A stretch of 64,000 nt of DNA from Desulfosudaceae bacterium (GTDB taxonomy: Bacteria; Desulfobacterota; Desulfobacteria; Desulfobacterales; Desulfosudaceae), in assembly GCA_963674745.2 (NCBI GenBank), contig CAXXDV010000003.1, positions 2,560,001 through 2,624,000 on the forward strand. The letters run 5' to 3'. The position numbers and the translations under genes are program-made. Of this stretch, positions 9,499-59,320 are shown in pieces (position 1 is the first letter of the stretch; every line of letters starts with the position of its first letter). The notes below the pieces were generated by a model, which worked only from the letters and a program-made list of their open reading frames with translations, made no database searches and had not been told where the DNA came from.

Positions 9499-10935
9499 AT
9501 GCAAACCGAACCTCTTCAAAACATATTACACAAATGGCTGTCGCCGGTCAACGTCGAACTGCCCGAATTATATGTCGTTGGTGGCGCCGTGCGCGACCAT
9601 CTCATGGCCAGGCCCATCCAGGATGTGGATCTGGCCTGCCGGGACGCCGCCGCTTTTGCCCGGAAAATCGCCGATTGCCAGGTTTTTCCGGCTGCGGTGG
9701 TACCGTTTACACGGGATCAACGGGCCCCCTGTTATCGAGTGGTCAACCGCGGCAACCCGGACGATCATATCGATGTGGTCAACCTGAGAGGCGCTGACAT
9801 CGAGACCGATCTGGCGTTGCGGGATTTTACCGTCAACGCCCTGGCCATTCGTATTGCCCCCCGGGGCCGGATGACGCAGGTATTGGATTGTCTCGGCGGC
9901 CGAAAAGACATTAAAAACCGCATGATCCGTGTTTGCGCGGACACGGCTTTTACCGACGATCCCTTGCGTATCTTACGGGCGGCACGCCTGGCTGCCCTGC
10001 TCGACTTTGACATTACGGCCGATACAATTCAAATGATGAAAGAAAACACGGGCCGACTGGTTGATGTGGCCGCCGAACGGATCACCGCCGAGTTGATGAC
10101 GTTGCTGAACTGTAGGAACAGCCTGCCCTGGGTCCGGCTGCTGGACGAAACCGGCGCCTTGTCCTTGATCCTGCCGGAAATATCGGCCGCCAAAGGATGC
10201 CAACAAAACGGCTATCATCATCTGGATGTGTGGGAACATTCCCTGGAAACGCTCTCTGCCTGTGACACCATGGCAGACAACCCTTCGTCTTTTTTCGAAA
10301 ACGCCGGTGAAGTTATTCGGGATATGCTTAGCCGTAAAGACAACCTGGCACTGATGAAACTGGCCGCCCTGCTTCACGATGTCGGCAAACCACGGGTAAA
10401 ACGATTCGACCCGGACAGGGGCCGGATGACCTTTCACGGCCATGCCCGGCGAGGCGCAGTCATGGCGGCCGATACGGCCGTTCGGCTTCGCCTGTCAACC
10501 GCTCACAAGGACCTGTTGACCCTGCTGATCGGCCATCACATGCGGCCGGTCATCCTTTCCCAACCGGACGTCAAAAAAGCCACCGTCGTCAAGTGGTTTC
10601 GCGAGATCGGGGATGCCGCCCTGCTGGTCATGATGCTGGCGGTGGCCGATGTGACCGCCAAGTCCGGTGAGAAACTGACCCAGGCCGCCAAGGACCGGTT
10701 TTTCAACTGGGTTCGGCAGACGACCGTTTATTATCTGGAAGACCTGAAAAACACCCTGGCGCAACCCAACCTGGTCAACGGGCACGATCTTATCCATCTG
10801 GGGCTGTCCCCCGGCCCGGCCCTGGGCAAAACGCTGGCGGAAATTCGTAAAAAACAGGACCTGGGGGAAATCGCCGACCGGGACAAAGGGTTAGAACTGG
10901 CCAAAAAACTGATCGAATCGAGGTTCGGGGGGTGA
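9499..10935 (+). CDS. Class II tRNA nucleotidyltransferase with HD domain (probably CC-adding)
   Basis: VGGAVRD, DVD, RDFTVNA, DDPLRILRA, ERI and LLHDVGK motifs. Confidence 0.85.
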   Translation: MQTEPLQNILHKWLSPVNVELPELYVVGGAVRDHLMARPIQDVDLACRDAAAFARKIADCQVFPAAVVPFTRDQRAPCYRVVNRGNPDDHIDVVNLRGADIETDLALRDFTVNALAIRIAPRGRMTQVLDCLGGRKDIKNRMIRVCADTAFTDDPLRILRAARLAALLDFDITADTIQMMKENTGRLVDVAAERITAELMTLLNCRNSLPWVRLLDETGALSLILPEISAAKGCQQNGYHHLDVWEHSLETLSACDTMADNPSSFFENAGEVIRDMLSRKDNLALMKLAALLHDVGKPRVKRFDPDRGRMTFHGHARRGAVMAADTAVRLRLSTAHKDLLTLLIGHHMRPVILSQPDVKKATVVKWFREIGDAALLVMMLAVADVTAKSGEKLTQAAKDRFFNWVRQTTVYYLEDLKNTLAQPNLVNGHDLIHLGLSPGPALGKTLAEIRKKQDLGEIADRDKGLELAKKLIESRFGG

Positions 10936-10974
10936 GGTTCGGGGTTCAAGGTTCAAGGTTCAAGGTTCGGGGTT
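10921..10974 (+). repeat. Heptamer tandem repeat (RGGTTCR)n
   Basis: aggttcg gggttca aggttca aggttca aggttcg directly after the stop codon. Confidence 0.85.
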
Positions 10975-18432: not shown

Positions 18433-21400
18433 TCAGTTATTCAACAGGGTATTGAAGAAACATCCGCCGCCGCCACCGCCGCCCGAAGATTTGGGGGCAG
18501 CGTCTCCTCCCGGCCCTGACGGATCGACAATAATCCCGTTGACGGTATTGTCCACATCGCCGGTGCCACCGTCGGTAATGGTCATGGTCATGGACATCCG
18601 GTCGGCGCTGAAAGTGACTTCCGTTGAGAAATCATACCAGCCGTTGATGATATCGTACTTATACCAACGCATATTTGCGGGAACGGCATCAGTAAAGTAA
18701 ACCGTAATGGTTGCCGTATCACCGGGTTGGGACAGGCGGACGCGGAAATTCAGCAGGTCCGCCGGCAGGTAAGCGGGTTGGCCATCAGAATTATCCAGGT
18801 CCGTTGGATCGATCAACTCCAGCATTTCAAACAAGCCGCCCCCTTCGACCGAAATACCCGAATAATAACCGGACAGTGCGATATAGGTATCCTGAATATC
18901 CGCCGTCCCGGGCAAGGTGGTAAAAGAAAACGTCTCGGACCACGCTGAAGGCAGGCCGTTTTCATCATAGAACCGGACCCGGCGATAGTAGACCGAATCC
19001 GGCTTCAGAACGCCGGCCGGCATCTGAAGATATGTCAAACAGAAATCTCCGATGGCTTCATAGGTCAGCGGTTCAAAATCAGGTGAGGTGCTGAACTGCC
19101 ACTGGGAGGAGGCATGACCGAGTCCTTCCGGATGGGTATAATCCTCAGTGGTGCAGATAGCCGTCAGGCTGACGTTCCCGGCCTGATTTCCAGGTGACTC
19201 ATGAATCGGCTGGTCCGGCCCCTCCTGTCCGTTGGGGGTCGGGTCGCTGTTATCGCCGATACCGTCGCCATCAGAATCCTGCCACTCGTTCGGATCATCG
19301 GGGAACACATCCAGGCAATCGCCGGTGCCGTCGCCGTCCCTGTCCGCTATATTAAAGACGGCCGTGACCGACATATCCTGATCCAGTTCGACGGTGCAGT
19401 CACCGGTACCGGTGCAGGCGCCGCCCCACCCGGCAAACGTGCTGCAGAGGTCGGGTTCGGCACTGAGCTGAACCGTTGAGCCGTCATCAAACGCTCCGCT
19501 GCAGGTACTGCCGCAGTCGATCCCGGCGGGCGTGCTGGTGACCCAGCCGCTGCCGTCACCGGTTGTGGACACGACCAGTTGCCTTGTAATCGTCGGCAAG
19601 GCAGAAGTCGACGTCGTAAAATACTTATCGGCGCCATAGGCCGTACCGCCCAGGTTTGTGGCATATGCCCGGTAATGATAAATAGTTCCGGGTGAAAGGT
19701 TGTATAGAGCGCCGGTAAAAGAACCGGTGGTTGTGGCGGCACCGGACTCGGTTCGATCGCCCGCGATGGTGGGATCGGCTGTAAGCCCCCAGCAAATCCC
19801 GTGCTGAGTGGGATCAGGATCGCCAAGATCCGTAATATTGCCATAGACGATGGCGGATGTCTGGCCAACCACGGCGGTCGCGCCCGTGGTTACCGTTGGC
19901 AATACGCCGACGGTTACCGTATCCGTGGCCGTATTATTGGTTTCATCAATTTCCGGCACACGATTGTCGGGATCCACAGTGCAATTACCGCCGGATCTGG
20001 GGTTGACAAAGGTCCCCGTTGCCGTGGGCGTGGCCGTAAATTCCAGGTCCAGCCGGCCTGTTTCAGCGCCGAAACTAATCGGACCACCAATGGCCCTAAC
20101 CTGCAAGTCGTTTGAAACAATGTCGGCGAGAATAGTTCCCGCCCAGATAATGTTCGTTTCGTAAGCAATGCTGACGGCCGAATAATTAATATTCGCATCC
20201 GGCAGGCTATCGATCAGAAGCACCTCATCGGTGTGAAAATGGGCATCGGCGGTGCCGGTATTGGTGATACTCAATGTCCAGGTCCAGCTATCTCCGAGTT
20301 CGACGGCGTCGGAAACGTCGTTGGTCTTGGTCACCGTCAGTTCCGGCTGGACGCCGGTTCCTTTAACGTCAAACGTATACGGATTTTCATCGGCATCTTC
20401 ACTGGCGATACTGATGGTGGCCGTGCGTTCACCCAGGTCCGCCGGGGTAAATTCAACCTCAAACGTGGTGGTTGCACCCGGGAGTATGGGTGACACCGGC
20501 GGCGTGGTCACCACGAATTCGGCACTGTGTGTACCGGAAACCGCCACCATCGGCGTTCCGGTCAAATACAAGGGGCCGGCGCCGGCGGCGTTTTCTATGG
20601 TAAAGGTGCGTGTGGCAACACCGCCCAGAAGCAGGACGTTGCTAAAGTCGGTGTGGTCGTTTAAATCCGGGGTGTCGTCGCCGTCGACAATTTCCAGTCC
20701 ATTGCCCTGAACACTTATCTCCGGCAGGGCGTTGGTGGTAAAGGTCATGTCAGCGCCGTTGACGACCCCGCCCAGGTTATCGCCTTTCACCCGGTAGTGG
20801 TAGGTGGTGCCGGGCGTCAGTCCGGTCAGCGTGAAGCTGGCGGCCGTATCCGTGAGGCCCGTAACCGGGCTCGGGGCCGCCGTGACCGTGGTGCCGTAAG
20901 CGACGGTTTCCCCGTATTCAAAGGCGACGGTGGTGTCGGCGTTGTTGGCATTGACCGTACCGTTCAACGTGGCCGTGGTTGCAAGAACAGTTGTGGCCGC
21001 ATTAGTCGTAACGGTCGGCGGCGCGGCTGCCGTGGTAAACGTCATGTCCGCACCGTTGGTGGTGCCGCCCGGGTTAACGCCCACCACCCGGTAGTGATAG
21101 GTGGTGTTGGGTGTCAGGCCGGTCAGCGCGGAACTGACGGCCGTATCCGTAATGCCCGTAACCGGGCTCTGGTCCGCCGTCACCGTGGTGCCGTAAACGG
21201 ACGTCAGGCCGTATTCAAAGGTGACGGTGGTGCTGGCATTGTTGGCGTTGACCGTGCCGTTTAACGTCGCCGTGGTGGTGCCGATGCCGGTGGCCGCGCT
21301 GGTGGTGACCACGGGGGGCACCGGAAGGGTGGTAAACGTCATATCCCCGCCGTTGGTGGTGCCGGCCCCATTGACCCCGACTACCCGGTAATGATAGAGG

Positions 21401-24400
21401 GTGTTGGGTGTCAGGCCGGTCAGCGCATAACTGACGGCCGTGGCCGTATTGCCCGTGACCGGGCTTTCGGCCGCGGTTACCGTGGTGCCGTAGGCAACGG
21501 TTTCGCCGTATTCAAATGTTACGGTGGTGCTGTTATTATAGGCATTGACCGTGCCGTTTACGGTTGTTGTGGTGGTGCCGACACCCGTGGCCGCATTGGT
21601 CGTGGCGGCAGGCGGCGCGGCTACCGTGGTAAAGGTCATGTCGGCGCCATTGGACGTGCCGCCCGAATTCACCCCGACCACCCGGTAATGATAGGTGGTG
21701 TTGGGGATAAGACCTGTCAGCATGTAGCTGACGGGCGTATCCGTGTTGCCCGTAACCGGGCTCTGGTCCGCCGTCACCGTGGTACCGTAAGAGGCGTCCG
21801 TGCCGTATTCAAAGGTGACGGTCGTGCTGGGATTGTTCGCGTTGACCGTACCGTTTACGGTCGCCGTGGTGGTGGTGATGCCCGTGGCCGCGTTGGTGGT
21901 GACCGTGGGCGGCGTGTCATTGTCCAGGATCGTGGCCGTGTAAACCGTGGTAGCACCCTGAGTCGCGTTGGTCGGAGCGCCCATGGTGACAGCCACTGTT
22001 TCATCGCTTTCCATTGTGCCATCATCGACAACTGTGATGGTCATCGTTTGCGTCGTGGACCCGGCCGCAATGGTGATCGGGCTGGCCGTAATCGTATAGT
22101 CTGTTCCACCGCCCGTAGCATCGCCGCCGGTGGTAAATGGAACGGTCACCGCAAGGCCCGATACGGCCGAAAGCTGGGCCGTTATGGTCAGGGGGCCGCC
22201 ATTTTCGGCAACAGACTGGCCGGCGGAGGTAAACGTTACCGTCGGCGGGGCGTCATTGTCGGCAATGGTGGCGGTATGGACCGTGGTCGCGCCCTGGCTG
22301 GCGTTGGTGGGCGTACCCATGGTCACCATGACGGTCTCATTATTTTCATCCAGGGCATCGTCGGTAACCGTAATGGTTATCGTCTGGATGGTGGACCCGG
22401 CCGCGATGGTTATGGGACTGGCGGTAATCGAATAGTCCGCGCCCGTGGCCGTACCGCCGACAGTATAGGGCACGGTCACCGGCAGACCCGATGCGGCTGA
22501 AAGCTGGGCCGTTATGGTCATGGTACCGGTGTTCTCAGCACCGGACTGAGCGGCGGAGGTAAACGACACCGTCGGCGGATCGTCATTGTCGCTGATGGTG
22601 GCGGTATGAACCGTTGTCGCGCCCTGGCTGGCGTTGGTGGGCGTACCCATGGTCACCACAACCGTCTCATTATCTTCATCCAGAGTGTCGTCATTCACCG
22701 TGATGGTGATGGTCTGGGTCGTGAACCCGGCCGCGATGGTTATCGGACTGGCCGTAATCCCATAGTCCGTTCCTCCGCCCGTGGCCGTACCGCCCACGGT
22801 AAAAGGAACGGTCACCGCAAGGCCCGATGGGGCCGAAAGCTGGGCCGTTACGGTCATGGTGCCGGCGCCCTCAGCGCCGCTCTGACTCGCGGACGTAAAC
22901 GACACCGAAGGTGTGGGATCATCGTCCGTGATGGTGGCGGTATGGACCGTGGTGGCGCCCTGGGTGGCGTTGGTGGGCGTGCCCATGGTTACAATGACGG
23001 TCTCGCTGTTCTCGTCCAGGACGTCGTCATTCACCGTGATGGTAATCGTCCGGGTCGTGGCCCCGGCCGCAATGGTGATTGGACTGGCCGTAATCGAATA
23101 GTCGGTTCCCCCGCCCGTAGCTGTTCCGCCCACGGTAAAGGGCACGGTCACAATATCACTGGAGGTTGTCGACAGTTCGGCGGTAATGGTCATGGTGCCG
23201 ACATCTTCCGCCCCGGTCTGGCTGGCGGCGGTAAAAGAAACGGCCGGCAGCAGGGAGGAAAGCGTGACAATGGGTGACGTCGGTGTCCCCGACCAGCCGG
23301 TTTCCGGCGGTGTGGCGCTGTCGGTCAGGTTGCGGTAAAGCTGACACCAGGTAATATCTGTTTCCGTGATCACCCATTTATTGGTACAGCCGCGATAACC
23401 CAGAAAATAATAATCCTTTTTATAATATTTCCTGCCGTTATAAAGACCGCCGACAACATCGATATACAGTCCATTTACATCGGCATTGGGGGCATCGGAA
23501 ACCAGGTAGCAGACCGGGTCAAAATTGATGCCAAAATCATTTCGCGTGGCCTGATATACCGCGGAAGCATTGCCCCCTGAAAAGGCGCTGTTCTGAAAAG
23601 CAAATGTCAGGTTGGTGACGTCATCCCCGTCGGCATGGTTCGTTGCTGCACCGGTCAGGGTGACGGACAGTTCCGTATCGCTGATCCGTTCGGCCACGGC
23701 CGTCAGGCCGGCCGGCAGGTTGGTGACGACCAGTTTTCCGGCAGCGACAAAATCATCGCCGTTGCTGCCGGTAAAGATTTCTCCCTGGTAATTATTATGG
23801 GTGATGATCATCACCGGTTTGTTGTGAATGGACCCGTCATTGGCCACGCCTTCTAAAAAGACGGTTTTGCTGTAAGCCAGCGCGGGTGCGGCCGGAAGGA
23901 CCGTGGGATACGGATATTCTCCGTTGCCGCCCCAGTTCCGCCAGTTGGTTTGCGGCGGCAGGTCGGCGGCCGAGTTATTGTAATAATAAGCGGTATTCCA
24001 GGTTGTATCCGGCCCGATCCGCCAGTTTGATTGGAGATTATACGTACCCCAGTATAGGACCTCGCCGGTCCCGAAATCGGTAAAAATCAGCTTGCCGTTG
24101 TAGACACCGCTTAAGCCGTAAATGCCGTTGGCCGCATCGGTCCCGGCATTAATGGCCATATATTCCCGGTAAAAATAGATGCTCAGGTCGTTTTTGGTGG
24201 AATTAAACACCCCGGCCGCTGTCGACAGAGTAAAAGCGCTGTCCTGGAAGGTAAAGGTGACATTGCTGACATCGTCCGCCGTGGTATGGCTCGCTGCATT
24301 ACCGGTAAAGGTTACGCTGAGTTCGACATTGCTGACGCGTTCGGCCACTGCCGTCAACCCGGCTGGCAGATTGGTCACCACCAGCTTGCCGTCGGCCACA

Positions 24401-27236: not shown

Positions 27237-28273
27237 AAATTCCCCAGAGCCCCGATCGCAAGGCTTAATAAAAACGTTTCAATGACGACGGTTATCAACA
27301 CCACGAAAGTCAGTTTTTTTCCGATAAACTTAATCAGCATCACCAGAGACGTAATGCAGACCGAGGTCGATGTCAGGGAAAAGGCCAGGGCCGTACCCAG
27401 CGGAAGGTTGGCGCATCTCATCAAGGGTTCTAAAAACAGCACATCAGCGCCATTGCAGAAATAAACCGGCACCCCGACCACGATGACCAGAACGGTCCCC
27501 AGAAAGTTGTTGCTCAGGTCGTAGTTTTTCAGCAGGCTGCCGGGAACATACAATTCGATCAACACCCCCATGGCGCCGGCAAGCAATAAAAAAGGAAATA
27601 TATTTTTAAAAATAACATAGGTGGTTTCATAAACATTGCTTTGGGCCATCGGGCAGCTTTTTTTTCCCGGGTTACACATGATCAGCGTACCCATCTCCTG
27701 CGGTTCCATTCTCCGATAAAACAGGTTGGCGATATAACCGGTTGAGACAGCGATGATAAATGAACAGATCACACGTAAAACAGCGTATCGCAACCCCAGG
27801 ACCGATATGGAAAGCATAATGATATAAGGGTTTAACAGGGGTGCGGCAACGACAAAGGTCATTACCGTCCCAAAGGATATTTTATTGCTCATGGTCTTAA
27901 TTAGCGGAATGGCGCTGCACGAACAGACCGGTATGATTGCCGCGTATAAAAAGGCCGAAGCCGGGTTATTGGGTATAAACCGCTTTAATTTAGAAAAATA
28001 TTTTTCCAGCAGACTGGCCACAAAAATACCGGCAATGACGACCAGGATCAATTCGATAAAATATTCGTAAAACATGAAAGCCGCTCGCGGCAGGGTAACG
28101 TAAAGGATGCACTCCTGACGGTTCAGATAGGTAATCCCGTTGGCATACTTATAGATCGTATCAATGATAAGTAAAAAAAAAGAGATCAGGATTAAACCCT
28201 TGATCCATAGTTCTCTGCGCACTTCGAATGTATTCCGCCTTTTGACAGCGGTAACAATTCTCATTTGAGACAA
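27227..28273 (-). CDS. Predicted permease (DUF318/ArsP-like)
   Basis: About 9 TM segments, PVCSCSAIP, AAPLLNP, GVPVYFC; start uncertain. Confidence 0.75.
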   Translation of the reverse strand: MSQMRIVTAVKRRNTFEVRRELWIKGLILISFFLLIIDTIYKYANGITYLNRQECILYVTLPRAAFMFYEYFIELILVVIAGIFVASLLEKYFSKLKRFIPNNPASAFLYAAIIPVCSCSAIPLIKTMSNKISFGTVMTFVVAAPLLNPYIIMLSISVLGLRYAVLRVICSFIIAVSTGYIANLFYRRMEPQEMGTLIMCNPGKKSCPMAQSNVYETTYVIFKNIFPFLLLAGAMGVLIELYVPGSLLKNYDLSNNFLGTVLVIVVGVPVYFCNGADVLFLEPLMRCANLPLGTALAFSLTSTSVCITSLVMLIKFIGKKLTFVVLITVVIETFLLSLAIGALGNLWV

Positions 28274-28468
28274 TCTCGATTTACTGAAATGATTTTTATT
28301 CCCCTTATAAAAAAATTATTATGGCATAAAGGGAACAGTAAATCAAGAGAATAGCACCTCGACCTAATCAATTTTAGTGTTATATTATAGATGTTTATAA
28401 TACCCCCGGCAGGGATCAGTTCACACTACCCACCAGCGGGTTTATTCGAAATTCTAAGGCTGCTCTCA

Positions 28469-28583
28469 TTAAAAGGGGGCGGGCTTGTCGGTCCTCTGGC
28501 CGGAGCTGCTGTCACTGCTGACCATCGGTGTCTCTATTTTCACCCTGGCCACAGTCCGATTCGCCCGGCGCGCCGCCGCCTGA
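28469..28583 (+). pseudogene. Displaced 3' fragment of the ABC permease gene (direct repeat copy 2)
   Basis: Encodes the same GLSVLWPELLSLLTIGVSIFTLATVRFARRAAA* peptide; decayed similarity extends back to ~28400. Confidence 0.85.
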
Positions 28584-28586
28584 TGC

Positions 28587-28728
28587 GGGCACCTCTAAAA
28601 ATTGCCTTTTGGCCCGATGTCGGCGTTGTGCTCAAATTTTAATCCTCGAAATACGACTAAGTATTCCTCCGGTTAAAATTTTCGCGCGCCTTGACCTCGA
28701 ACCAAAATTCTAATTTTTAGAGATACCC
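28587..28728. mobile_element. MITE-like element, 142 bp
   Basis: Terminal inverted repeats GGGCACCTCTAAAAATT / AATTTTTAGAGATACCC (15 of 17 match); no coding capacity. Confidence 0.65.
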
Positions 28729-28745
28729 GTAAGTTTAGTCATCCA

Positions 28746-28841
28746 TTGCATTTTTCAATTCTTAAAAAAAATCGCCGCCCAACAGCGTATTGAAGAAGCA
28801 TCCGCCGCCTGATAGATTTAAGGGGTCAAGGGGGCTGAGTC
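28746..28841. repeat. Chimeric remnant: giant-gene tail fused to permease stop region
   Basis: 28746-28809 resembles 18406-18470; 28802-28841 resembles 18026-18064; the parts overlap at CCGCCGCC. Confidence 0.7.
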
Positions 28842-28979
28842 ATTAAGCCATGAACTCCGACCGTATTAAAAAACTCAAAAAATTGATATCGATTGTGTTA
28901 ACGCAAATAATACGGTAATATATTATATTCCTGAACTTTTGATTCACCCAACTTCTGCAATCAACCGATGAGGCGGCTC

Positions 28980-30215
28980 ATGCTGACGGAAAAAGAGAAA
29001 CTTGAACGGCTGACCATTCTGGGAATCGAGCTGAATCATATCCAGGATATGGATATCATGATGGAAAAAATCCTGACCGAGTCGCGATGTTTTGTCAATG
29101 CCGACGCCGGTTCCATCTATATCCGGGAAAATGACCGCCTGCGTTTTACCTACACCCAGAACGATACCCTTCAAAAACGGCTGGCACCGGGTGAAAAACT
29201 GATTTATTCCACCTTTAGCCTGCCCATTGACAAAAAAACCCTGTCCGGATATGTCACCCTGACCGGCGAGCCCCTAAATCTCGACGACGTTTATCAAATC
29301 GATCCGGTCAGTCCCTACCAGTTCGGCAAACGATTTGACGAGGCCACCGACTACAGAACCAAGTCGATTTTGACCATTCCCCTGGCCACACCCGGGGGTA
29401 AAACCCTGGGCGTTCTGCAGGTCATCAACGCCCGGGATGACGCCGGCCGGACGGTTGCCTTCAGCGACTCGGACGTGATGACCATGATGAACTTCGCCGG
29501 TATCGCCTCGGTCACCCTGGAACGCGCCCAGATGACCCGCGCCCTGCTGTTGCGGATGATCAAGATGGCCGAGATGAGGGATCCCAGGGAAACCGGTGCC
29601 CATGTCAACCGCGTCGGCGGTTATGCCGTGGAGTTGTATGAAAAATGGGCCCGGCGACGGGACATTCCGGAACAAGAGATCGAAAAAAACCGGGATCTGC
29701 TGAGGATGGCGGCCATGCTCCATGACGTGGGCAAGGTCGGTATTTCCGACACGATTTTAAAAAAACCCGGCAAACTGGACGAACAGGAATATGAAACCAT
29801 GAAGGACCATTCCGTGCTGGGCGCGCGGCTGTTTATCAACAGCCAGTCGGCTTTTGACGATACCGCCGCTGCCGTGGCACTGAACCATCATGAAAAATGG
29901 AATGGCTCCGGATACCCCGGGTATATCAACACCGCTACCGGGCGCCCTCTGCCGGAACATAAACAGCCCAACGGTCGGGCGGCCGGCAAAAAGGGAGAAG
30001 AAATCCCGATTTTCGGCCGAATTGTGGCTCTGGCCGATGTCTTTGACGCGTTGTCCTCCATCCGGGTCTACAAGCCCGCCTGGGATGAGGCCCGGGTGCT
30101 GGAAACCCTGCAAAAAGACGCGGGTTCCCATTTTGATCCCGAATTGGTGGAACTGTTTCTCGACAGCCTGGATATTATGCGCAGCATTCAGCAACGGTAT
30201 AAGGATGACGAATGA
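28980..30215 (+). CDS. GAF + HD-GYP cyclic dinucleotide phosphodiesterase
   Basis: NADAGSIY, YRTKSILTIPL, GVLQVIN (GAF); ETGAHVNRV, LHDVGK, HHEKWNGSGYP, ADVFDAL. Confidence 0.9.
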   Translation: MLTEKEKLERLTILGIELNHIQDMDIMMEKILTESRCFVNADAGSIYIRENDRLRFTYTQNDTLQKRLAPGEKLIYSTFSLPIDKKTLSGYVTLTGEPLNLDDVYQIDPVSPYQFGKRFDEATDYRTKSILTIPLATPGGKTLGVLQVINARDDAGRTVAFSDSDVMTMMNFAGIASVTLERAQMTRALLLRMIKMAEMRDPRETGAHVNRVGGYAVELYEKWARRRDIPEQEIEKNRDLLRMAAMLHDVGKVGISDTILKKPGKLDEQEYETMKDHSVLGARLFINSQSAFDDTAAAVALNHHEKWNGSGYPGYINTATGRPLPEHKQPNGRAAGKKGEEIPIFGRIVALADVFDALSSIRVYKPAWDEARVLETLQKDAGSHFDPELVELFLDSLDIMRSIQQRYKDDE

Positions 30216-30307
30216 TGTGGTTATGTGTTTAAGTGGTTAGGTGATTAGGGGGGTGTGGGTCATGAGAGGCAGGGGCTTTGAAGGGTTTAAAGTTTTAAGT
30301 GATTAAG
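30215..30307 (+). repeat. Degenerate octamer tandem array (G/T-rich on plus) with internal non-periodic motif
   Basis: ATGTGGTT ATGTGTTT AAGTGGTT AGGTGATT ... AAGGGTTT AAAGTTTT AAGTGATT. Confidence 0.85.
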
Positions 30308-30312
30308 CCTTT

Positions 30313-30747
30313 TTATACCATTTCTTGACAGATTTCACAGTTCCAGTTTACAATTTCCAATCCTTTCTTAAATTCTTGTAACAATTCAACATGATTAAAA
30401 TATTCTTCTTTTGATGAAAAATCATATGCCCAAAGAGTTGATTCCAATGTCATAAGTTCTGGTGTTGGCATGCATGTAAATTCAAGATGCAACTGTTCCA
30501 TATATTCGTACTCACCATCTTCATCAGCCACTGAGAACTGGCGGACGAATTCAAAATAAAAAAGGCGCTCACCAGTAAAATCATAACATCCCGTCTGAAA
30601 CAGAATACCATCATCCTCACATTCAACTGGTTCGGCAACGAACTTTTTAAATGCCTTCCACGCAATACCCGGATCTGGCTTTTTAAAATCAAAGCCGCTG
30701 GAACTCAATATTTCAAGCAATCTTGCTTCCGCTTCATTGACTTTCAT
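30313..30747 (-). CDS. AT-rich acidic hypothetical protein (possibly immunity-like)
   Basis: 144 aa, GGAG RBS, codon usage unlike neighbours; function not recognisable. Confidence 0.7.
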   Translation of the reverse strand: MKVNEAEARLLEILSSSGFDFKKPDPGIAWKAFKKFVAEPVECEDDGILFQTGCYDFTGERLFYFEFVRQFSVADEDGEYEYMEQLHLEFTCMPTPELMTLESTLWAYDFSSKEEYFNHVELLQEFKKGLEIVNWNCEICQEMV

Positions 30748-30757
30748 TTTGTCTCCA

Positions 30758-30919
30758 AATCACTTAAAACCCGAACCAAAAACATAATCACAACTGGGCA
30801 CGGCACCGCCGTGCCCCTACATAAACACTTAACCACCTGAAAACCCGAACCACTTAATCACATAATCACTTAAACACATAATCACTTAATCACCTAAAAC
30901 CCTAACACTCTAAAACCTT
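30758..30919 (-). repeat. Degenerate octamer tandem array (G/T-rich on minus) containing a GTAG REP
   Basis: AATCACTT, AACCACTT, AAACACAT and AAAACCCT units; GTAGGGGCACGGCGGTGCCGTGCCC on minus at 30820-30796. Confidence 0.88.
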
Positions 30920-30935
30920 TCCCTTCCCCGCACGG

Positions 30936-31574
30936 CTAGAGTAACCCCAAGCTAAATATTGCGGCGTTCCCGAGGACATGAATGGTGTAGGGGGTCATCA
31001 AGCTTTTTTCTTTTTCATAGGCCAGGCAGAAAACAATCCCGCCGATGGCCTGGGTAACCGGAATGGCCGCAACAGACAGGTGCAGGCCGGCAAATACGGC
31101 GGTGGCCACAATGACGCCGGTGGCCACCCCCCAACGTCGAAAATAACCGTACAAAAGCCCCCGGAAAAACAACTCCTCGGCAAGGGGGGACACCACCACG
31201 CCGGTTAAAAGATAAAGCGCCCCATCGGTTCCGGGAGGCAGGTCCAGCCGGAAAAAAAGGACCGGGTTGTTACCCGCGGCCAGCAGCAATGCGCCGGCAA
31301 CGGCTACCGCGCCGCCGAAAACAATCGACCAGCTCAACCCCGTCTTTAGCCCCCTGACGAAATCGCTTTTGCCCAGCCCCACGCCGGCCAGATCGCGCTG
31401 CCACAACCATATTAATAACAGCAACAGCAGCGTCTCGGCCATGCGAGCGGCCAGAAGCGCAACCGGTGGCGAGCACGTGCCTGCCGCCACGGTTGTCCGG
31501 GCCAGGGTTTCGACCAGCACAATCGCCGCCATGGCCGTAGCAACCGTTATCAGTCTGATTTTTCCGGTATCCAT
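30936..31574 (-). CDS. CPBP family (CAAX protease/Abi) intramembrane protease
   Basis: EELFFRG, FAGLH and HVLGN motifs; TM segments. Confidence 0.9.
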   Translation of the reverse strand: MDTGKIRLITVATAMAAIVLVETLARTTVAAGTCSPPVALLAARMAETLLLLLLIWLWQRDLAGVGLGKSDFVRGLKTGLSWSIVFGGAVAVAGALLLAAGNNPVLFFRLDLPPGTDGALYLLTGVVVSPLAEELFFRGLLYGYFRRWGVATGVIVATAVFAGLHLSVAAIPVTQAIGGIVFCLAYEKEKSLMTPYTIHVLGNAAIFSLGLL

Positions 31575-33160
31575 CCCAGTCTCCTGGAGTCCTTAAAGGC
31601 GTAAAACTGAACATACCAGTTATCGGTGGACTGCATTTTCTCAAGCACCACTTCCCTGTAAGACTCCTGGGTTTTGCCATCCAGATTTTCAAACCGATCA
31701 GCGATAGCAGCAATGGCTTTGCAGATGATATAGGCTGAATCTGATTCCAAAAATCGAAAAATGGCCCTGGTTGCTTCAGGGGCACGACTGTTCCCCAGAT
31801 TACTGACCAGCCAGTAGCGCTGGGCAAAATCCGTAGTTGTCAGCAGTTTCTGATACCCCGGGAAACCGGCGATATCCAACCGGTTGTCATGAATAAACCG
31901 CAAGGCGACGATGCGCTCTTTGCGGGTACCATCCCGGATAGCGGCTGCGGCCTGATCCCGTGTCAGCGTGTCCGCTGCCGGTGCATCCAGGGCCAGCATG
32001 ACGCATATCCAAAAAATGAAGCAGAGAAGCGGTGCCAGAAATGATGCCACGCGGATATTCAACAGCACGCCGGGAAAAAGACAAAAAACGGCATAGCTGC
32101 TCAGATAAAGAATCAGGGGTGCCACACCCAGCAGGGCGACGATGGTAAACTGTCGAAAAGCCTTGCTGTTATCCGTTTCTGCGGAAAACTGATCGAGTAT
32201 TTCAGCGGCCGATCTCATAAACCGGTTGCGGTCGACAATCAACACGGCCTTTTTTCCATGGCCGAGAATCAGCCGGTCTTCCTGAAAAACAAGTCTCAAG
32301 TCAGCCGCAGGCCCTTCTTCGGCAATGACAAAATAGTTCTGTGCCCGCAACACAGCTTCCAGGCTGCGGGCGGTTTTTGCATCCATATCTCCGGCAATCA
32401 CACAGGTTTTAAGCTGTTTATCAGCCAACGGCTTGAAAACCTCGGCCGGGAACAGGGTATACCGGTAATAAAAATCAACGATCGCGGCACCGGGGCGGGA
32501 GGTCAACAGCAGGTTGTCCTTTAAATTGACAAACACATCCTTGTTCACCTGCGACAACCAGATCGCCAGCAGGACGGCAATAAGCACAAAATGAAAGGGA
32601 TTGCGCCAGGGAAGGCGTTTATACCCTTTTCGTTGCGGCGACCATTTCAGGGTTGCCCAGACAACCGCCGGGGGAACCAGCAGCAAAAAAGCCGTCAGAC
32701 CGGGACAAAGCCCACGGGCATTAGCCCGGATCAGCAGCATCAGCCATCCGATGACTGGAACCGTCGCGGCGGTTGCCGTTATCAGAAGAACCGCCATGCC
32801 CAGGAACCGGAAACCGGGTTTTAACATTCCGGATTTATAAACCCGGACGAGCGACGGCAGCGGCAGAATCAGCAAAATCGTCACAAAGGTCAGCAAAACG
32901 ACTCCCGCGCCCGTACTGAGCGTGAAAAAGGCGCCACCGGCAAAAGCGGCTTCAAAGCTTGTCAGTGACGGGTCAATATTAACGCCGGGCAGTGGACTGT
33001 AGCCTGCCGCCTGGATGGCGGCAATTTTTGCCGCCAGCGACCGGTTGGAAAAATAAACCAGCACGGTCCCGACCACCTGAGCCACCGCCAGTCCCAGAAC
33101 GACCACCCGAAACGGATAGAGGAGGCGCAGGGTGTCTTTAATGTTCGAAACCAGGTTCAA
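31550..33160 (-). CDS. Polytopic membrane protein with C-terminal HEAT-like repeats
   Basis: Many TM segments; C-terminal helical repeats (RYWLVSNLG, ICKAIAAIA); overlaps the CPBP gene. Confidence 0.6.
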   Translation of the reverse strand: MNLVSNIKDTLRLLYPFRVVVLGLAVAQVVGTVLVYFSNRSLAAKIAAIQAAGYSPLPGVNIDPSLTSFEAAFAGGAFFTLSTGAGVVLLTFVTILLILPLPSLVRVYKSGMLKPGFRFLGMAVLLITATAATVPVIGWLMLLIRANARGLCPGLTAFLLLVPPAVVWATLKWSPQRKGYKRLPWRNPFHFVLIAVLLAIWLSQVNKDVFVNLKDNLLLTSRPGAAIVDFYYRYTLFPAEVFKPLADKQLKTCVIAGDMDAKTARSLEAVLRAQNYFVIAEEGPAADLRLVFQEDRLILGHGKKAVLIVDRNRFMRSAAEILDQFSAETDNSKAFRQFTIVALLGVAPLILYLSSYAVFCLFPGVLLNIRVASFLAPLLCFIFWICVMLALDAPAADTLTRDQAAAAIRDGTRKERIVALRFIHDNRLDIAGFPGYQKLLTTTDFAQRYWLVSNLGNSRAPEATRAIFRFLESDSAYIICKAIAAIADRFENLDGKTQESYREVVLEKMQSTDNWYVQFYAFKDSRRLGWIPEKSD

Positions 33161-33176
33161 GGGTTCTTTCTTTCAG

Positions 33177-33260
33177 AAATGGTTAAGTGTTTATGTGATT
33201 ATGTGTTTAAGGTTTTAGAGTTTTAGGGTTTTAGGTGGTTAAGTGATTAAGTGGTTAAGG
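33177..33260 (+). repeat. Degenerate octamer tandem array (G/T-rich on plus), about 10 units
   Basis: AAATGGTT AAGTGTTT ATGTGATT ATGTGTTT AAGGTTTT AGAGTTTT AGGGTTTT AGGTGGTT AAGTGATT AAGTGGTT. Confidence 0.9.
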
Positions 33261-33265
33261 ATTTT

Positions 33266-33757
33266 CTAGTTATCGTTAATCACCTGTGTAAATGTAATCT
33301 CTAAATATGACTCAGAGGCCCCATGCATCATAAGGATTGATTTAACTTCTGCATCTTTTAATAGGCCTGAATCAAAAGGGCCTTCTACCCGCCACCAAGC
33401 GGGGTCAGCCTCCGAGTTATCCTGTAAGAATCTGTTGGATGGATTATCATACGGCTTCAAACCAAGCTTATTCACTAAACGAATAACGGCATCTTTATTT
33501 AATATGAATGCATACGTCACGGCACTACTATTCGATGACTTGTTCACATGAACAACGTTCGAGATGGGCAGCCCGTTATTTTCTAACAACATATCGATTT
33601 TCCGAACAAATTCTTCGTGACTATTACATGAGAACAGTATAGTACAAAAAATAAGCATCAAAGCGATTGCAAATGAGCTTATTCTTATATAGCCCCGACC
33701 AGCCACAGAATATTTTATCCCATACATTGAATTTATGTTTAGCATGTCCTGCGCCAT
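33266..33757 (-). CDS. AT-rich hypothetical lipoprotein
   Basis: Hydrophobic stretch ending in lipobox LFSC. The ORF-track start 33847 lies inside the IS, so the real start is 33757, 33745 or 33727. Confidence 0.6.
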   Translation of the reverse strand: MAQDMLNINSMYGIKYSVAGRGYIRISSFAIALMLIFCTILFSCNSHEEFVRKIDMLLENNGLPISNVVHVNKSSNSSAVTYAFILNKDAVIRLVNKLGLKPYDNPSNRFLQDNSEADPAWWRVEGPFDSGLLKDAEVKSILMMHGASESYLEITFTQVINDN

Positions 33758-33859
33758 AACACCTAAAACTTTAACACCCTGATATGATTGACAGTTGTCA
33801 AATGGAAAATAGTTCTCCTGCCAGTTTTTAATCTGGTCTCCTTGCATTTATGAAATTCC

Positions 33860-34050
33860 AGGGTACCCGGAGGGGCGGAACCTTTAATGCGACGGTTGTT
33901 CACTCTGATATACGCGGGTTGGATACCGCATGACTTTTCTTCGTCGCGGAGCTGCCTCTGTCTAAAATCTGGAGTTAGGCCGAAAGGCTTATCCTATAGG
34001 GTGTCCGAGGGTTCTCCTTTCCGTGGCTGCGCCCCCGCGGCTGCCCTGGA
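33860..34050 (-). ncRNA. Putative bridge/seek RNA of the IS (ends approximate)
   Basis: Contains ACACCCTA and TTTTAG (target) either side of a hairpin, and ATATCAGA (donor junction). Confidence 0.7.
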
Positions 34051-34120
34051 ATATGATGTTGTAAATGGTCTATCGAACCTCCTGTTGATCATGTTTTTGT
34101 ATTTTGCCTTTTGATTGGCT

Positions 34121-35236
34121 CTAATTTGTCAAAGATGCTTCGGATTCAATGGCGATTGCCCAGATAAAACCGCAAAGTTCCCGGGCGATAGCGGTTATAA
34201 TGACCTGCTTGGTTTTTCCTTTGGCCCAAAAATGCCGGTAGCGTCCACAGAGTCTTAATTGTGCTTTCCAGGAAATATCACGGATGCTTTGCGGTAATCC
34301 TTCCTGTTTCTTCAGTAATGCTCGAGTAACCCGTGCTCTGTGCCGGTACGACCAGGCCGCTTCAACCAGTATGCGGCGCACATGCGAATTACCGGTTTTG
34401 GTGATCGGGCCGCGCTTGATATTTTCGCCGGTGGAATATTCTGATGGCACCAGGCCAAGATAGCTCATCAGTTGATCCGGGTGGTCAAAACGATTAAAAC
34501 TTCCGATCTCCACGGTGATTATAGCGGCAGCGAGTAACGAGATGCCGCGCAGGCTCTGGAGCGCTTGAACGACAGGAAACATCCGCCATTGCGGTATGAG
34601 CTGATGTATCTGCTCGGTGAGCCGCTGAACACGCAGGCTGCAATGATCCAGATGGTCGACATATTCTTGCAGGACAATTTGCTGGGACTCATGGGGCATT
34701 TTGATATCGGCAATCCAGCGCCGATGAGCCTGGGTCCACGGCGTACGTCCGGTATACGTAAAACCGCTACGCAGCAGAAAAGCCGACAATCGCTGCTTGC
34801 AACGTTTTTCATCCTGCTTGATATCACTACGCGCTCTGACCAGGTCTCGCAAGGCCTCGTCTTCGGCAAGGGGAACATGAACGGAAGTCAAGTCGCCGGA
34901 TCGATGCAAACGCGCCAGCATAAGAGAATCGCGCCGGTCATTTTTAATCCGGTTCCCGCTCTGCTTGGGAATCAGCGAAGGCGCTACCACCTTACAGTCA
35001 AAACCCTTGGCAGTAAGATGACGATAGATCTGATAACCGCAGGGACCGGCCTCATACACAAAATGCAGATCGGCATTTTTACTGACCATCTTACGTGTCA
35101 CCTTGTCCAGTGCCGCCAATGTTCCATCGATTTGACCATAGTGTACAACTTCACCATTACACCCGCCTTGGGCGATGGAAATATCAATACTTTTTTTGTG
35201 GACATCCATACCGATAAATATGCTATTCTTCTTCAT
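34121..35236 (-). CDS. IS110 family transposase/recombinase
   Basis: DEDD residues in GMDVHK, YEAGPCG and KNDRRD; C-terminal GLVPSEYSTG, ITKTGN, AIARELC. Confidence 0.95.
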   Translation of the reverse strand: MKKNSIFIGMDVHKKSIDISIAQGGCNGEVVHYGQIDGTLAALDKVTRKMVSKNADLHFVYEAGPCGYQIYRHLTAKGFDCKVVAPSLIPKQSGNRIKNDRRDSLMLARLHRSGDLTSVHVPLAEDEALRDLVRARSDIKQDEKRCKQRLSAFLLRSGFTYTGRTPWTQAHRRWIADIKMPHESQQIVLQEYVDHLDHCSLRVQRLTEQIHQLIPQWRMFPVVQALQSLRGISLLAAAIITVEIGSFNRFDHPDQLMSYLGLVPSEYSTGENIKRGPITKTGNSHVRRILVEAAWSYRHRARVTRALLKKQEGLPQSIRDISWKAQLRLCGRYRHFWAKGKTKQVIITAIARELCGFIWAIAIESEASLTN

Positions 35237-35355
35237 GACCTGCCTCCTTGGTATTGGCTCTGTGCCAGGTTAATGTAGGTTGACCTTTAGCATAACCCAC
35301 GTTTGCAAGGATGGCAGGTCATTTCCTTCTATTTTAACTGTCAATCATTATGTCT

Positions 35356-35543
35356 AAAACCTTTAATGCCTCTGCCGCACATCCCCCCAGATCTAACCTA
35401 CACCCTCATAATCACTTAACCACTTAATCACCTAAGCACCTAAAGCTTCTAAGCGGCACTTTCACTTATCGGCTTGGTTCTGCGCTATGCCCCGGTTGGA
35501 CGTTTAAAACCCTAAAACCTAAAACTCTAAAACTTTAAAACCT
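35356..35543 (-). repeat. Degenerate octamer arrays (G/T-rich on minus), continuing 33757-33780 across the IS
   Basis: TAATCACT TAACCACT TAATCACC TAAGCACC (35409-35440) and TAAAACCC TAAAACC TAAAACTC TAAAACTT (35505-35543). Confidence 0.85.
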
Positions 35544-35641
35544 TCGTATAATTATGAGTTGTACTATACCATCGTTCTGTTAAAATACAACATTCGACCA
35601 CGTTCAATCAATTGCGAGACGAAGCCGTCAAAGGAGATAAA

Positions 35642-36385
35642 ATGAAAATAGCCGCCATCATTCCCTCACGCTACGAATCCACCCGTTTCCCGGGAAAACC
35701 CCTGGCGCCGATTGCCGGCACCCCCCTGATCCAGCACGTTTACAATCGTGTCCGCCAGGCCCCTTGCATCACGGACGTCGCCGTGGCCACGGACGACCAG
35801 CGTATTTATGACGCGGTGATGGGTTTCGGCGGGGATTGCGTGATGACCCGGGACAAATGCCGCACCGGAACGGACAGAGTCGCGGAAGCCGCCCGGTTAA
35901 TGGGGCTGGAACCCGGTGACATCGTCGTTAACGTTCAGGGGGACCAGCCGCTGATCGCGGCGGAGACCATCGAACAGACCGTCGCCCCGCTGCTTTCTCC
36001 GGTTGATTTCGGCGTATCCACCCCGCTTCTTGCCATCGATGATGAAACAACGATCAACAGCACCAAAAACGTCAAAGCGGTTTTTGACAGCGGGGGGTTC
36101 GCACTTTATTTCTCAAGGGCACCGATTCCTTATGCCCGCGATCCCGAAACGCCCGCCCGGATTTACAAGCATCTGGGTGTCTATGCTTTTGCCATCGGTT
36201 TTCTGGGCCTGTTTGCCAGCCTGCCGTCGGGGAAACTGGAAGAAATTGAAAAACTGGAGCAGTTAAGAGTGCTGGAGTATGGATACAAAATCAAGGTCGT
36301 CATTACCGAACATGATTCACCGTCCGTTGATCTTCCCGAAGATATCGAGTATATCGAGTCGCTCATGGCCGCCGGTCAGGAGTGA
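35642..36385 (+). CDS. kdsB: 3-deoxy-manno-octulosonate cytidylyltransferase
   Basis: IIPSRYESTRFPGKPL, GTDR, VNVQGDQP, YFSR.PIP, EKLEQLR; AGGAG RBS. Confidence 0.95.
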   Translation: MKIAAIIPSRYESTRFPGKPLAPIAGTPLIQHVYNRVRQAPCITDVAVATDDQRIYDAVMGFGGDCVMTRDKCRTGTDRVAEAARLMGLEPGDIVVNVQGDQPLIAAETIEQTVAPLLSPVDFGVSTPLLAIDDETTINSTKNVKAVFDSGGFALYFSRAPIPYARDPETPARIYKHLGVYAFAIGFLGLFASLPSGKLEEIEKLEQLRVLEYGYKIKVVITEHDSPSVDLPEDIEYIESLMAAGQE

Positions 36386-36393
36386 TCAAAACC

Positions 36394-37200
36394 TTACCTT
36401 AAATTTTCTTCGACAATCTCCCCGGGAGGAACAGGCTCGGCGCCAGGTGAAGAAACGGCCATCTTCCGTTCCAGATCATAGATGCGGACTTTCAGGGCTT
36501 TTAATTCATTTTCAACCGATCTGGTCGCGGCCTCAACAGACGGCATCAGGTTTTTCTGAAACTGGTTCAGCATGCCGCGAACCGTTTCCGTATCCGGTTT
36601 AAGGGCCGTCATATCCTTGAGGCCGGCCAGATGGGTTTCAACCGTTTCAAGCTGCTGGCGCAAGGCCAGCAGCTGACGTGACGCTTCAGCCACGGCCGAC
36701 GACAGTTTTTCCATGTCCTTGCGCAAACCGTCTACGGATGAAGCGTTTTCCCTGTTTTCCGCGGTCAGGGATTTAATGCTTTTTTGATTGGCTTTTACGC
36801 TGCCCTGATATGTCTTGAAGTCGGCCGAGATACTTTTAAACTCGCTCCGGATGCTTTTCACGGCCTCGGCATTGTGACTGATTCTGGCCAGTTCCCTGTC
36901 CACAGATTCCTTTTGCGCCGCCAGATTATTCTGCATGTCATTCAGGCGGACATCGTATCGTTGGGAAAATGACTGCACCGTTTCCGAACCCGTATGCTGA
37001 AAATCATTCACTTTTTTGGTAATACTGAAATAGGCCAGAACCCCGACCACCGCGATCAGGCAGGGTATAATGATGGATATAAAGGTGACTTTCCATCCCA
37101 GGCTGTCCACCTTTTTTTCCAGGTGTTCACCGGCGTACTCACCGGCATGGTCTTTGTGGTCGAACGAAAAGGTAAAATCTCCGTCATCCGGGAAGTCCAT
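36394..37200 (-). CDS. Single-TM coiled-coil protein
   Basis: One TM segment near the N-terminus followed by long heptad repeats. Confidence 0.65.
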   Translation of the reverse strand: MDFPDDGDFTFSFDHKDHAGEYAGEHLEKKVDSLGWKVTFISIIIPCLIAVVGVLAYFSITKKVNDFQHTGSETVQSFSQRYDVRLNDMQNNLAAQKESVDRELARISHNAEAVKSIRSEFKSISADFKTYQGSVKANQKSIKSLTAENRENASSVDGLRKDMEKLSSAVAEASRQLLALRQQLETVETHLAGLKDMTALKPDTETVRGMLNQFQKNLMPSVEAATRSVENELKALKVRIYDLERKMAVSSPGAEPVPPGEIVEENLR

Positions 37201-59246: not shown

Positions 59247-59266
59247 AACATTTTCGATCGACCGGA

Positions 59267-59320
59267 GAACCCAGAACCCAGAACCCAGAACCTCGAACCC
59301 CGAACCCCGAACCCCGAACC
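59267..59320 (-). repeat. Heptamer tandem repeat (GGTTCNR)n, about 8 units
   Basis: gaaccca x3, gaacctc, gaacccc x3, gaacc; abuts the stop codon of the 59320 gene. Confidence 0.9.

Follow-up and report, generated by a model that had tools for sequence, protein, structure and literature searches.

Two small AT-rich genes lie between arrays of degenerate octamers in a 64,000-nt stretch of a Desulfosudaceae bacterium genome (GCA_963674745.2, contig CAXXDV010000003.1, positions 2,560,001 to 2,624,000), and in both cases the G/T-rich strand of the flanking arrays points toward the enclosed gene from either side. This arrangement raises the question of what the arrays are: sites that capture single genes or arms that pair in the transcript to loop a gene out, both of which had been put forward in an earlier note, or repeats of the host between which foreign genes have settled. 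The last answer is preferred here, with a probability of about 0.6: the arrays would be host spacer repeats of a known class, and the two orphans, termed cargo 1 and cargo 2, acquired accessory genes in the variable centres between facing arrays. The whole 64-kb stretch is referred to as the window. It corresponds to C3:2560001-2624000 of the 5.55-Mb, three-contig assembly (designated G000), and positions elsewhere in that assembly are given in the same form. The loci were compared with G002, of the same genus, and G001, a second species of that genus.

Facing arrays at two loci

Arrays were sought with the pattern TTADGTGDTTADGTGD (TTADGTGD twice, at most one mismatch), 100 shuffles serving as control. 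The window contained 19 matches against a mean of 0.04 expected, and 0 of the 100 shuffles reached 19. All 19 fell at the two loci, on the + strand at 30213-30252 and 33183-33254 and on the - strand at 30817-30897 and 35404-35443, which confirms in position and strand the inward octamer arrays that had been described around both genes. Here, + denotes an array whose G-rich strand runs forward and - an array that is C-rich on the + strand; a G-rich array followed by a C-rich one is an inward pair. The features of the two loci are as follows, where REP stands for repetitive extragenic palindrome and IS for insertion sequence.

28968..30215, +: host gene for an HD-GYP-type phosphohydrolase with GAF (Pfam HD_5, HD, GAF)
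30215..30307, +: locus 1 left arm, a G/T-rich degenerate octamer array in pieces 30215-30249 and 30286-30307
30313..30747, -: cargo 1, encoding a 144-aa protein, between the locus 1 arms
30758..30920, -: locus 1 right arm, C/A-rich on the + strand, in pieces 30758-30792 and 30814-30920
30796-30816: REP-type GC-rich hairpin inside the locus 1 right arm
30936..31574, -: host gene for a CPBP/Rce1-like membrane protease (Pfam PF02517), syntenic in G002 and G001
31550..33160, -: host gene for a 536-aa membrane protein, with a 59% identical orthologue at the same place in G002
33180..33260, +: locus 2 left arm, a G/T-rich octamer array
33266..33757, -: cargo 2, encoding a small protein with a lipoprotein-like signal in its translation
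33757-33780, 35344-35364, 35407-35444 and 35503-35544, -: array pieces of the locus 2 right arm, C/A-rich
33758..35360 (ends +/- ~25 bp), -: IS110-family (IS1111-like) IS that splits the locus 2 right arm
33786-33797 and 35337-35348: 12-bp subterminal inverted repeats of the IS
34121-35236, -: IS110-family RNA-guided transposase gene (Pfam DEDD_Tnp_IS110, PF01548, and Transposase_20, PF02371)
35361..35544, -: locus 2 right arm beyond the IS, two blocks around a ~45-nt hairpin motif (about 35463-35505)
35612..36385, +: host gene kdsB, CMP-KDO synthetase (Pfam CTP_transf_3), syntenic in G002

The arrays were found to stop as close to the cargo as had been claimed (about 10 bp), with 5 bp to the cargo 1 stop codon, 10 bp to its ATG and 5 bp to the cargo 2 stop codon. 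The 10-bp spacer at the cargo 1 ATG contains GGAGA. On the outer side, the G-strand of the locus 1 left arm has its 5' end at the HD-GYP stop codon, which overlaps the first array unit, and the 5' end of the locus 2 left arm lies 20 bp off the membrane gene start. The AT-rich character of the enclosed genes also held, their G+C content (GC) being 0.37 compared to 0.50 for the genome, with values of 0.32-0.42 for the enclosed DNA. The best inverted arms at these loci were 41 nt long and 83% complementary. An Rfam scan of window positions 28000-37000 returned no family at E<=1.

Orthologous junctions in related genomes

In G002, the order of kdsB, the membrane gene, the CPBP gene and the HD-GYP gene is retained, and the flanking proteins are 59-85% identical; the HD-GYP orthologues of the two same-genus genomes are 84-86% identical. 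Inward pairs are present immediately upstream of the membrane gene start, around a centre of ~160 bp, and past the CPBP stop, around a centre of ~115 bp. Both are gene-less, as are both inward pairs of G001. Neither cargo gene nor the IS was found at either junction in G001 or G002, and cargo 1 was absent from the whole genomes of the five array-bearing relatives searched. Empty sites, which had been raised as an expectation for captured genes, were thus found at both junctions. The contrary case, in which both genes are retained vertically at array-free sites, was not seen in these two genomes, which have the arrays and no cargo. With the arrays kept where the cargo is absent, the cargo is taken to occupy a variable centre between conserved arrays, and the array-paired junctions that lack them in two genomes of the genus support the view that both genes behave as cargo.

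A third junction, downstream of panC, carries an inward pair in both G000 and G002, and the centres differ: an AT-rich 121-aa membrane open reading frame (ORF) in G002 and ~500 bp of AT-rich DNA with REPs in G000. In each species the arrays abut the adjacent gene, often overlapping its stop codon. Because they contact whichever gene adjoins, arrays would appear to regain the coding boundary after a rearrangement.

Unit length varies within the genus, the array at an orthologous junction of G002 (L011:7683-7731) having 7-nt units (TTAAGTN) compared to the 8-nt units of G000. The ~45-nt hairpin motif, of the GGTTTGGTTCCGGG...CCCGGTTGGGACGCT type, was observed at 35463-35505 of the window, at L011:10432-10475 in G002 and at L077:3716-3760. 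It recurs along the inner edge of C-rich arms, both in three species and at a number of loci within G000, and was also seen at array centres of G001 and G002.

The junctions also differ in their host genes. G001 and G002 both have a gene of 260-286 aa between HD-GYP and the array pair; next to the other pair they have a LarB-like gene of 250 aa. Both genes are missing there in G000, whose only counterparts (of p286 and p251) are 52%-identical paralogues located elsewhere. Gene loss coincides with gene gain at both junctions, as in one replacement event, and the arms stay while the centres vary across species. These observations are what would be expected if the arrays served as portable homology, two crossovers in the arms, in any 8-bp register, swapping the centres in a cassette exchange that needs no recombinase and operates among strains with the repeat in common. 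Computed arm pairing also suits this scheme, since a G-arm pairs about as well with one C-arm as with another (-0.65 kcal/mol per nt between partners and -0.60 between non-partners, compared to -0.24 for G against G). The contents of the centres do not: any repeat elsewhere in the genome was found for only 27/196 inter-array segments, and these were IS elements, REP clusters, tandem duplications and integron cassettes, with no cargo among them. Cargo 1 is missing from the five array-bearing relatives mentioned above, no octamer arrays were seen at its relatives in other lineages (at 11 genome loci, or at the 10 metagenome loci inspected out of 28), and arms of 20-160 bp with 70-85% identity are poor RecA substrates. 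Exchange by homology is considered unlikely.

Empty sites could alternatively reflect loss, the genes being old residents that disappeared from the sister species while arrays grew around them in G000. Just two relatives were compared, possibly sharing one common loss, and arrays grow up to any adjacent gene. Against long residence, the genes have a GC of 0.37 in a 0.50 genome and coding scores of 17-21 compared to the typical 60-300. Members of the cargo 1 family occur here and there in several phyla, in most cases again with a lower GC than their surroundings, cargo 2 has a single relative, and among the array bearers of the order (five searched) cargo 1 was seen in this genome alone. Old residence is therefore judged rather improbable, and acquisition into a variable centre is preferred.

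The octamer arrays as a genome-wide repeat family

Period 8 was the top tandem period of G000 in Tandem Repeats Finder, accounting for 591/2803 rows. Chaining of array 8-mers yielded 668 arrays totalling 28.4 kb, of which 448 have an intergenic midpoint; a G-content filter that drops A-rich false matches left 600 arrays, or 507 merged blocks. The main units comprise all nine TTA(A/T/G)GTG(G/A/T) combinations, each common, and a second unit family reads TTTTARRG. Only 3.4% of the G-rich strand is C. With an invariant TTA-GTG core and two positions that accept anything but C, the unit looks constrained rather than decaying. The main TTADGTGD units contain no GGG, which occurs only in the minor TTTTAGGG unit, and so no G-quadruplex is expected of the main family. 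A resemblance of the units to telomeres and to omega heptads was dropped as unsupported pattern-matching. Across 151 sampled genomes of the order, a three-unit pattern matched nine, with 480 matches in G000, 72 in G061, 68 in G002, 39 in G084 and 1-4 in each of five others; the reversed control pattern gave 0 everywhere. As a separate observation, C1:234461-235540, upstream of a UDP-glucose dehydrogenase-like gene, contains a composite unit of 115-230 bp repeated in tandem about nine times; within it, octamer units take turns with two conserved segments of 60-80 bp.

To place the arrays relative to genes, gene positions were taken from our own ORF-and-codon-usage caller. Adjacent array blocks less than 500 bp apart were ordered +- in 47 cases, -+ in 9, ++ in 9 and -- in 13, whereas beyond 500 bp all four orders were about equally frequent. 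Within spacers bounded by confident genes the counts were 52 for +- and 3 for -+. The 5' end of the G-strand was the end closer to a gene in 265/356 intergenic blocks, at a median distance of 58 bp compared to 211 bp from the 3' end; the gene end that it abutted was a stop-codon end in 128 cases and a start-codon end in 55. Arrays were present in 64/510 convergent, 78/509 divergent and 185/2824 tandem spacers, and inward pairs in 17/510, 3/509 and 32/2824, respectively. Regions fetched from G002, G061 and G084, which were picked around pattern matches and hence are no random sample, gave 10 inward and 1 outward pairs within 500 bp. Array orientation is thus non-random genome-wide, as the earlier note had anticipated (47 inward compared to 9 outward pairs in G000).

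Two simple explanations were rejected. A promoter role of the C-rich arrays is not indicated by the number of promoter-like sites in the region (5, with 6.7 expected) or by the rarity of pairs between divergent genes (3/509 compared to 17/510 between convergent ones). As to orientation, only a mild bias with replication strand was seen, and an orientation flip near C1:205 kb does not fall at a GC-skew switch. This flip lies in a polysaccharide-synthesis cluster at C1:173-241 kb that has an array in almost every spacer. All of its arrays are C-rich on the + strand until ~203 kb and all are G-rich on that strand from ~211 kb, with nearly all genes on the - strand on both sides. Interleaved genes in the cluster include AbiEii, MazF, HEPN, Schlafen/AlbA_2, PF05635 and seven AAA_14-DUF4143.

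Most inward pairs are gene-less; their centres of 26-250 bp consist of hairpins, many of them GTAG-headed GC-rich palindromes of the REP type. The GTAG-hairpin of the locus 1 right arm (30796-30816) recurs in array centres genome-wide. As regards a transposon or miniature inverted-repeat element (MITE) with terminal inverted repeats, the centres have no common sequence beyond REPs and short motifs, and arm lengths range from 20 to 260 bp. Genes found inside other inward pairs encode a PF05635 four-helix protein, a Y1_Tnp protein with REPs, ParE with its partner, DACNV+DAC and DUF7919. Tight flanking in the order G-array/gene/C-array was seen for only five genes, which are short (median 144 aa) with a median GC of 0.45, compared to 13 long genes of normal GC (median 0.54) in the order C-array/gene/G-array. 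Among low-GC genes outside integrons no enrichment beside arrays was detected (17/261 compared to 375/3983, odds ratio 0.67, p 0.12). The genome scan therefore does not sustain the idea that inverted arrays specifically enclose low-GC genes. Nor are the arrays a cassette-specific device, given that ~600 of them stand at ordinary gene ends and most inward pairs hold no gene.

REPs, bacterial interspersed mosaic elements (BIMEs) and REPIN systems with their REP-associated tyrosine transposases (RAYTs) are intergenic, hairpin-forming mosaics of motifs favoured at the 3' ends of genes. The centres of G000 resemble them in having GTAG-hairpins, including that at 30796-30816, and a Y1_Tnp gene. The octamer arrays themselves are tandem direct repeats with neither a palindrome nor the GTAG signature. 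The Y1 gene in question, an IS200-like, RAYT-like transposase gene at C3:1064302-1064871, has its whole locus within an inward array pair; REP doublets flank it, and one more is read through in frame inside the ORF. A second copy, 90% identical, lies at C3:1179248-1180120. An ISL3-type element (C1:1589347-1590680) was also observed in a C-rich array. It has three identical copies with 8-bp target duplications, and only one of the three is in an array, so ISL3 does not target them.

The facing orientation bears on the second proposal of the earlier note, that the arms pair in the transcript and hold the ORF in a long imperfect duplex, which RNase III would cut or which would stabilize the message. 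Intervening sequences (IVSs) of 23S rRNA may bear ORFs in this manner, and PF05635 is a family found in them. The likeness is that of a small gene within inverted arms able to form a long duplex; unlike the IVS genes, the cargo genes are neither PF05635 members nor in rRNA, although PF05635 genes do occur beside or between arrays in G000. Since both cargo genes run in the direction of the membrane-gene/CPBP operon, a transcript reading through them would have a GU-rich arm on the 5' side and a CA-rich arm on the 3' side. In the minimum-energy fold of 30205-30925 (- strand) the two arm segments pair around the ORF, and looping out is physically possible. However, the fold had a z of only -1.76, with 1/20 shuffles folding as well, and partner specificity was weak: partners averaged -0.651 and non-partners -0.599 kcal/mol per nt (permutation p 0.03), with a median partner rank of 20.5 of 50. 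Most pairs are gene-less, and arrays also occur singly or in same-orientation runs. Contigs of four runs, placed on the stretch in the search for RNA evidence, showed cross-mapping between arrays only and no clean joint. Looping out at the RNA level is regarded as very improbable.

Under the preferred reading, the octamer arrays would be one lineage's version of long strand-asymmetric simple-sequence repeats at gene ends, and would be host features kept at orthologous junctions across species. Each begins at a gene or a few bases from it, with the G/T-rich strand running 5'->3' outward; as this strand points off the neighbouring gene, two arrays of one spacer face each other. The stretch between them may be a weakly constrained zone where extra DNA survives. 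The survivors would include REP hairpins, the IS110-type element, toxin-antitoxin pairs, four-helix genes of the 23S-IVS type and small orphans. The two AT-rich genes would have been acquired horizontally, would be of the compact promoterless kind that fills the integrons of G000, and would have lodged in two such centres by passive rather than catalysed arrival. Arrays probably grow by unit slippage, and their distance of 5-10 bp from the cargo would arise because they expand until they meet sequence under selection.

Several points weigh against this account. The near-absent untranslated flank of the cargo is not explained by passive accumulation, which also fails where arrays keep the same orientation over up to ~30 kb between successive accessory genes. 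The genes shared by the sisters are gone from both G000 junctions, so the events there exceeded simple insertion. Two sister genomes were compared, and if they are closest kin, one ancestral loss would explain the empty sites; gain in the G000 lineage, presumed here, is accordingly not proven against a single loss in the sisters' ancestor. Gene counts are approximate because the ORF caller is home-made and crude. Finally, the account gives the arrays themselves no function.

Long 7-8-nt repeats of bacterial gene ends have been on record for decades with no function assigned, and abundant lineage-specific intergenic tandem repeats include the short tandemly repeated repetitive (STRR) heptamers of cyanobacteria. 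The present family is an undescribed octamer version of the known gene-end class, with accessory genes in the centres; no description of this unit was found in full-text literature searches on octanucleotide repeats and on the array sequences themselves. Its arrays show the head-to-tail excess, the gene-proximal 5' end and the convergent pairs of such repeats, and lack G-quadruplex tracts.

Rehm et al. (2015; PMC4692102) describe the same geometry for the G-rich heptamers GGGAATC and GGGGAYT of Xanthomonas and Nostoc. In Xanthomonas, an ORF is close on the 5' side whatever the orientation, its stop codon is often overlapped, and 70-75 convergent opposite-strand pairs are commoner between convergent than between divergent genes. 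The repeat spacers there are more conserved than controls and have no link to mobile elements. Like the G000 arrays, the heptamers are tandem 7-8-nt units, strongly strand-asymmetric, ~90% intergenic and of the same gene-end geometry (PMC4692102). The G000 octamers differ in being degenerate at two positions and, in the main family, without G-tracts, and their centres hold IS elements, REPs, toxin-antitoxin pairs and orphan genes.

Two other repeats are more distant. In Geobacter metallireducens, species-specific octanucleotide sites (GTTGCTYN x4) form 24 opposite-strand pairs at variable distance, some with insertion sequences at a fixed distance, and were proposed, as a proposal only, to be sites for a regulator of the integration host factor (IHF)/HU type (Aklujkar et al. 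2009, PMC2700814). They share with the G000 arrays tandem octamers paired on opposite strands and nearby IS elements; the unit is another one, each site has four units, and no enclosed genes figure in the passages of that paper on these sites. The TAACTGA repeats of Beggiatoaceae, likewise abundant, lineage-specific, intergenic 7-nt tandem repeats, are described by MacGregor (2015, PMC4679880) as forward-oriented and just upstream of start codons, with only one inverted set reported.

Enclosed genes, integrons and the insertion sequence

Cargo 1 is a genuine gene of a conserved 144-aa family. Fourteen relatives were found, 12 of which are 143-147 aa long and 51-85% identical over >=97% of the length, and the predicted fold has a mean pLDDT (predicted local distance difference test) of 95. 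No match was obtained in Pfam, NCBIfam or PADLOC, nor in Foldseek at E<=0.001; the best ESM Atlas score was 0.76 and the best VIA-align Z, 4.8, is at noise level. The family is spread over Chloroflexota, Bacillota and Betaproteobacteria, with relatives in Anaerolineales, Chitiniphilus, Desulfosporosinus, Clostridium, Paenibacillus and others, mostly GC-poorer than their surroundings. For cargo 2 one relative was found (55% identity), and no match in Pfam, NCBIfam or PADLOC. Its sequence has a hydrophobic stretch ending ...LFSC, read by eye as a lipobox. A 193-aa reading of cargo 2 has its first 30 residues in a segment shared with the IS, so its start is placed at 33757 or further in. Both genes are single-copy in the genome, low in GC and of patchy distribution.

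Two metagenome contigs carry a cargo 1 relative between direct repeats of 110-130 nt spaced 490-820 bp apart. The relative in L050 has a 129-nt repeat on each side and a third, incomplete copy at cassette spacing, and in L048 three repeats, 600 and 492 bp apart, surround it. The repeats start with an RYYYAAC-like and end with a GTTRRRY-like sequence and, judged by eye from these ends, are presumably attC-like. The cargo 1 family would thus be cassette-like.

G000 has integrons of its own. Three genes match the integron integrase model TIGR02249 with 415-429 bits (cut-off 265):

C3:27977-28915: integron integrase
C3:2348261-2349205: integron integrase
C1:2117407-2118342: integron integrase

A blastn search with both attC classes found 218 attC-like hits, which fall into two classes and form arrays of as many as ~85 cassettes; the cassette ORFs have a GC of 0.31-0.43. 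None of the 218 lies inside C3:2560001-2624000, and hence none beside either cargo. Among the attC arrays are C1:1480915-1531204 (~50 kb) and C3:1821281-1857804, and several clusters are far from any integrase.

The cargo resembles integron gene cassettes in consisting of a single compact, promoterless, AT-rich ORF in a host with three integrons, and in having, for cargo 1, putatively attC-flanked relatives in other metagenomes. It differs in that neither gene has an attC and that the flanks are inverted tandem arrays rather than one imperfect palindrome. An integron origin of the arrays themselves was rejected, because no IntI match was found in the array-rich genomes G061 and G084, whereas 79/151 genomes had IntI over the cut-off.

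A narrower link would be that the integron integrase inserted the two genes as cassettes at pseudo-sites within the arrays. The array units GGTTAAGT, GGTTATGT and GGTTAGGT contain the core-site consensus GTTRRRY, or RYYYAAC on the C-rich strand, and by inspection the polarity fits, with G-type sites upstream and C-type sites downstream of the ORF. Also in favour are the three IntI genes and ~218 attC-like hits and the putative attC flanks of cargo 1 relatives, and the G000 cassette ORFs match the cargo in GC and short leaders. Insertion at a secondary site should, however, bring an attC, which neither cargo nor the rest of the window has, and insertion at a single site leaves flanks in the same orientation, not inverted. 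Only ~1/3 of units start with G. Octamer arrays occur without an integrase (G061 and G084, both 99% complete), and most of the 79 IntI genomes are array-less. Integrase-driven insertion is thus highly doubtful, and passive lodging of an acquired cassette is favoured.

A broader reading, also thought improbable, is that facing arrays form a general, attC-independent landing pad for the capture, exchange between relatives and insulation of accessory genes. It would take in promoterless integron-type cassettes, toxin-antitoxin pairs, PF05635 genes and IS110-type elements. Instead of inert spacer DNA, the repeats would then be a genome-wide punctuation for accessory genes. G000 is an unusually clean case in which to consider such roles, with ~600 arrays, strict polarity and fixed arrays around centres that turn over across species. 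If accessory genes enter at the centres by preference, by tolerance or by catalysis, the repeats would gain a role in genome plasticity, and the fixation of integron-type orphan genes outside integrons would be explained. If they do not, the octamer family is still new and extends the Xanthomonas geometry to a sulfate-reducer-like order.

The earlier note had stated that neither cassette encodes a recombinase. This fails for locus 2, where the transposase gene at 34121-35236 matches NF033542 with 253 bits (cut-off 140). Like IS1111-type members, the element has subterminal repeats, and non-coding sequence extends a long way 3' of its transposase gene. The only other copy of the IS in the genome is 99.9% identical and is also in a C-rich array, in the same orientation; that two of two copies are in arrays is suggestive of array targeting but leaves it unproven. 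The piece at 33757-33780, previously assigned to the right-arm array, is octamer-like as claimed. Its membership of the arm is in doubt, because it is almost letter-identical to sequence of the second IS copy and may belong to the IS or to a preferred target.

Within the non-coding part of the IS, contig depth at positions 33890-33980 reached hundreds to thousands across four runs, compared to 5-8 for the genome. This segment is therefore conserved and shared widely, and may be the guide-RNA core of IS110-type elements. In addition, a 12-nt sequence at 33879-33890 is repeated in the DNA immediately beyond the IS end, at 35359-35374.

Other repeats were observed in the window away from the two loci. 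Separate heptamer arrays lie at 10918-10974 and 59266-59320 (AGGTTCA/GGGGTTC type and AGAACCC type), and thus the genome has more strand-asymmetric repeat families than the octamers. Two long tandem repeats at 20735-23151, of period 297 (x4.0) and period 336 (x3.3) with 77-80% matches, are probably inside one large repetitive protein gene.

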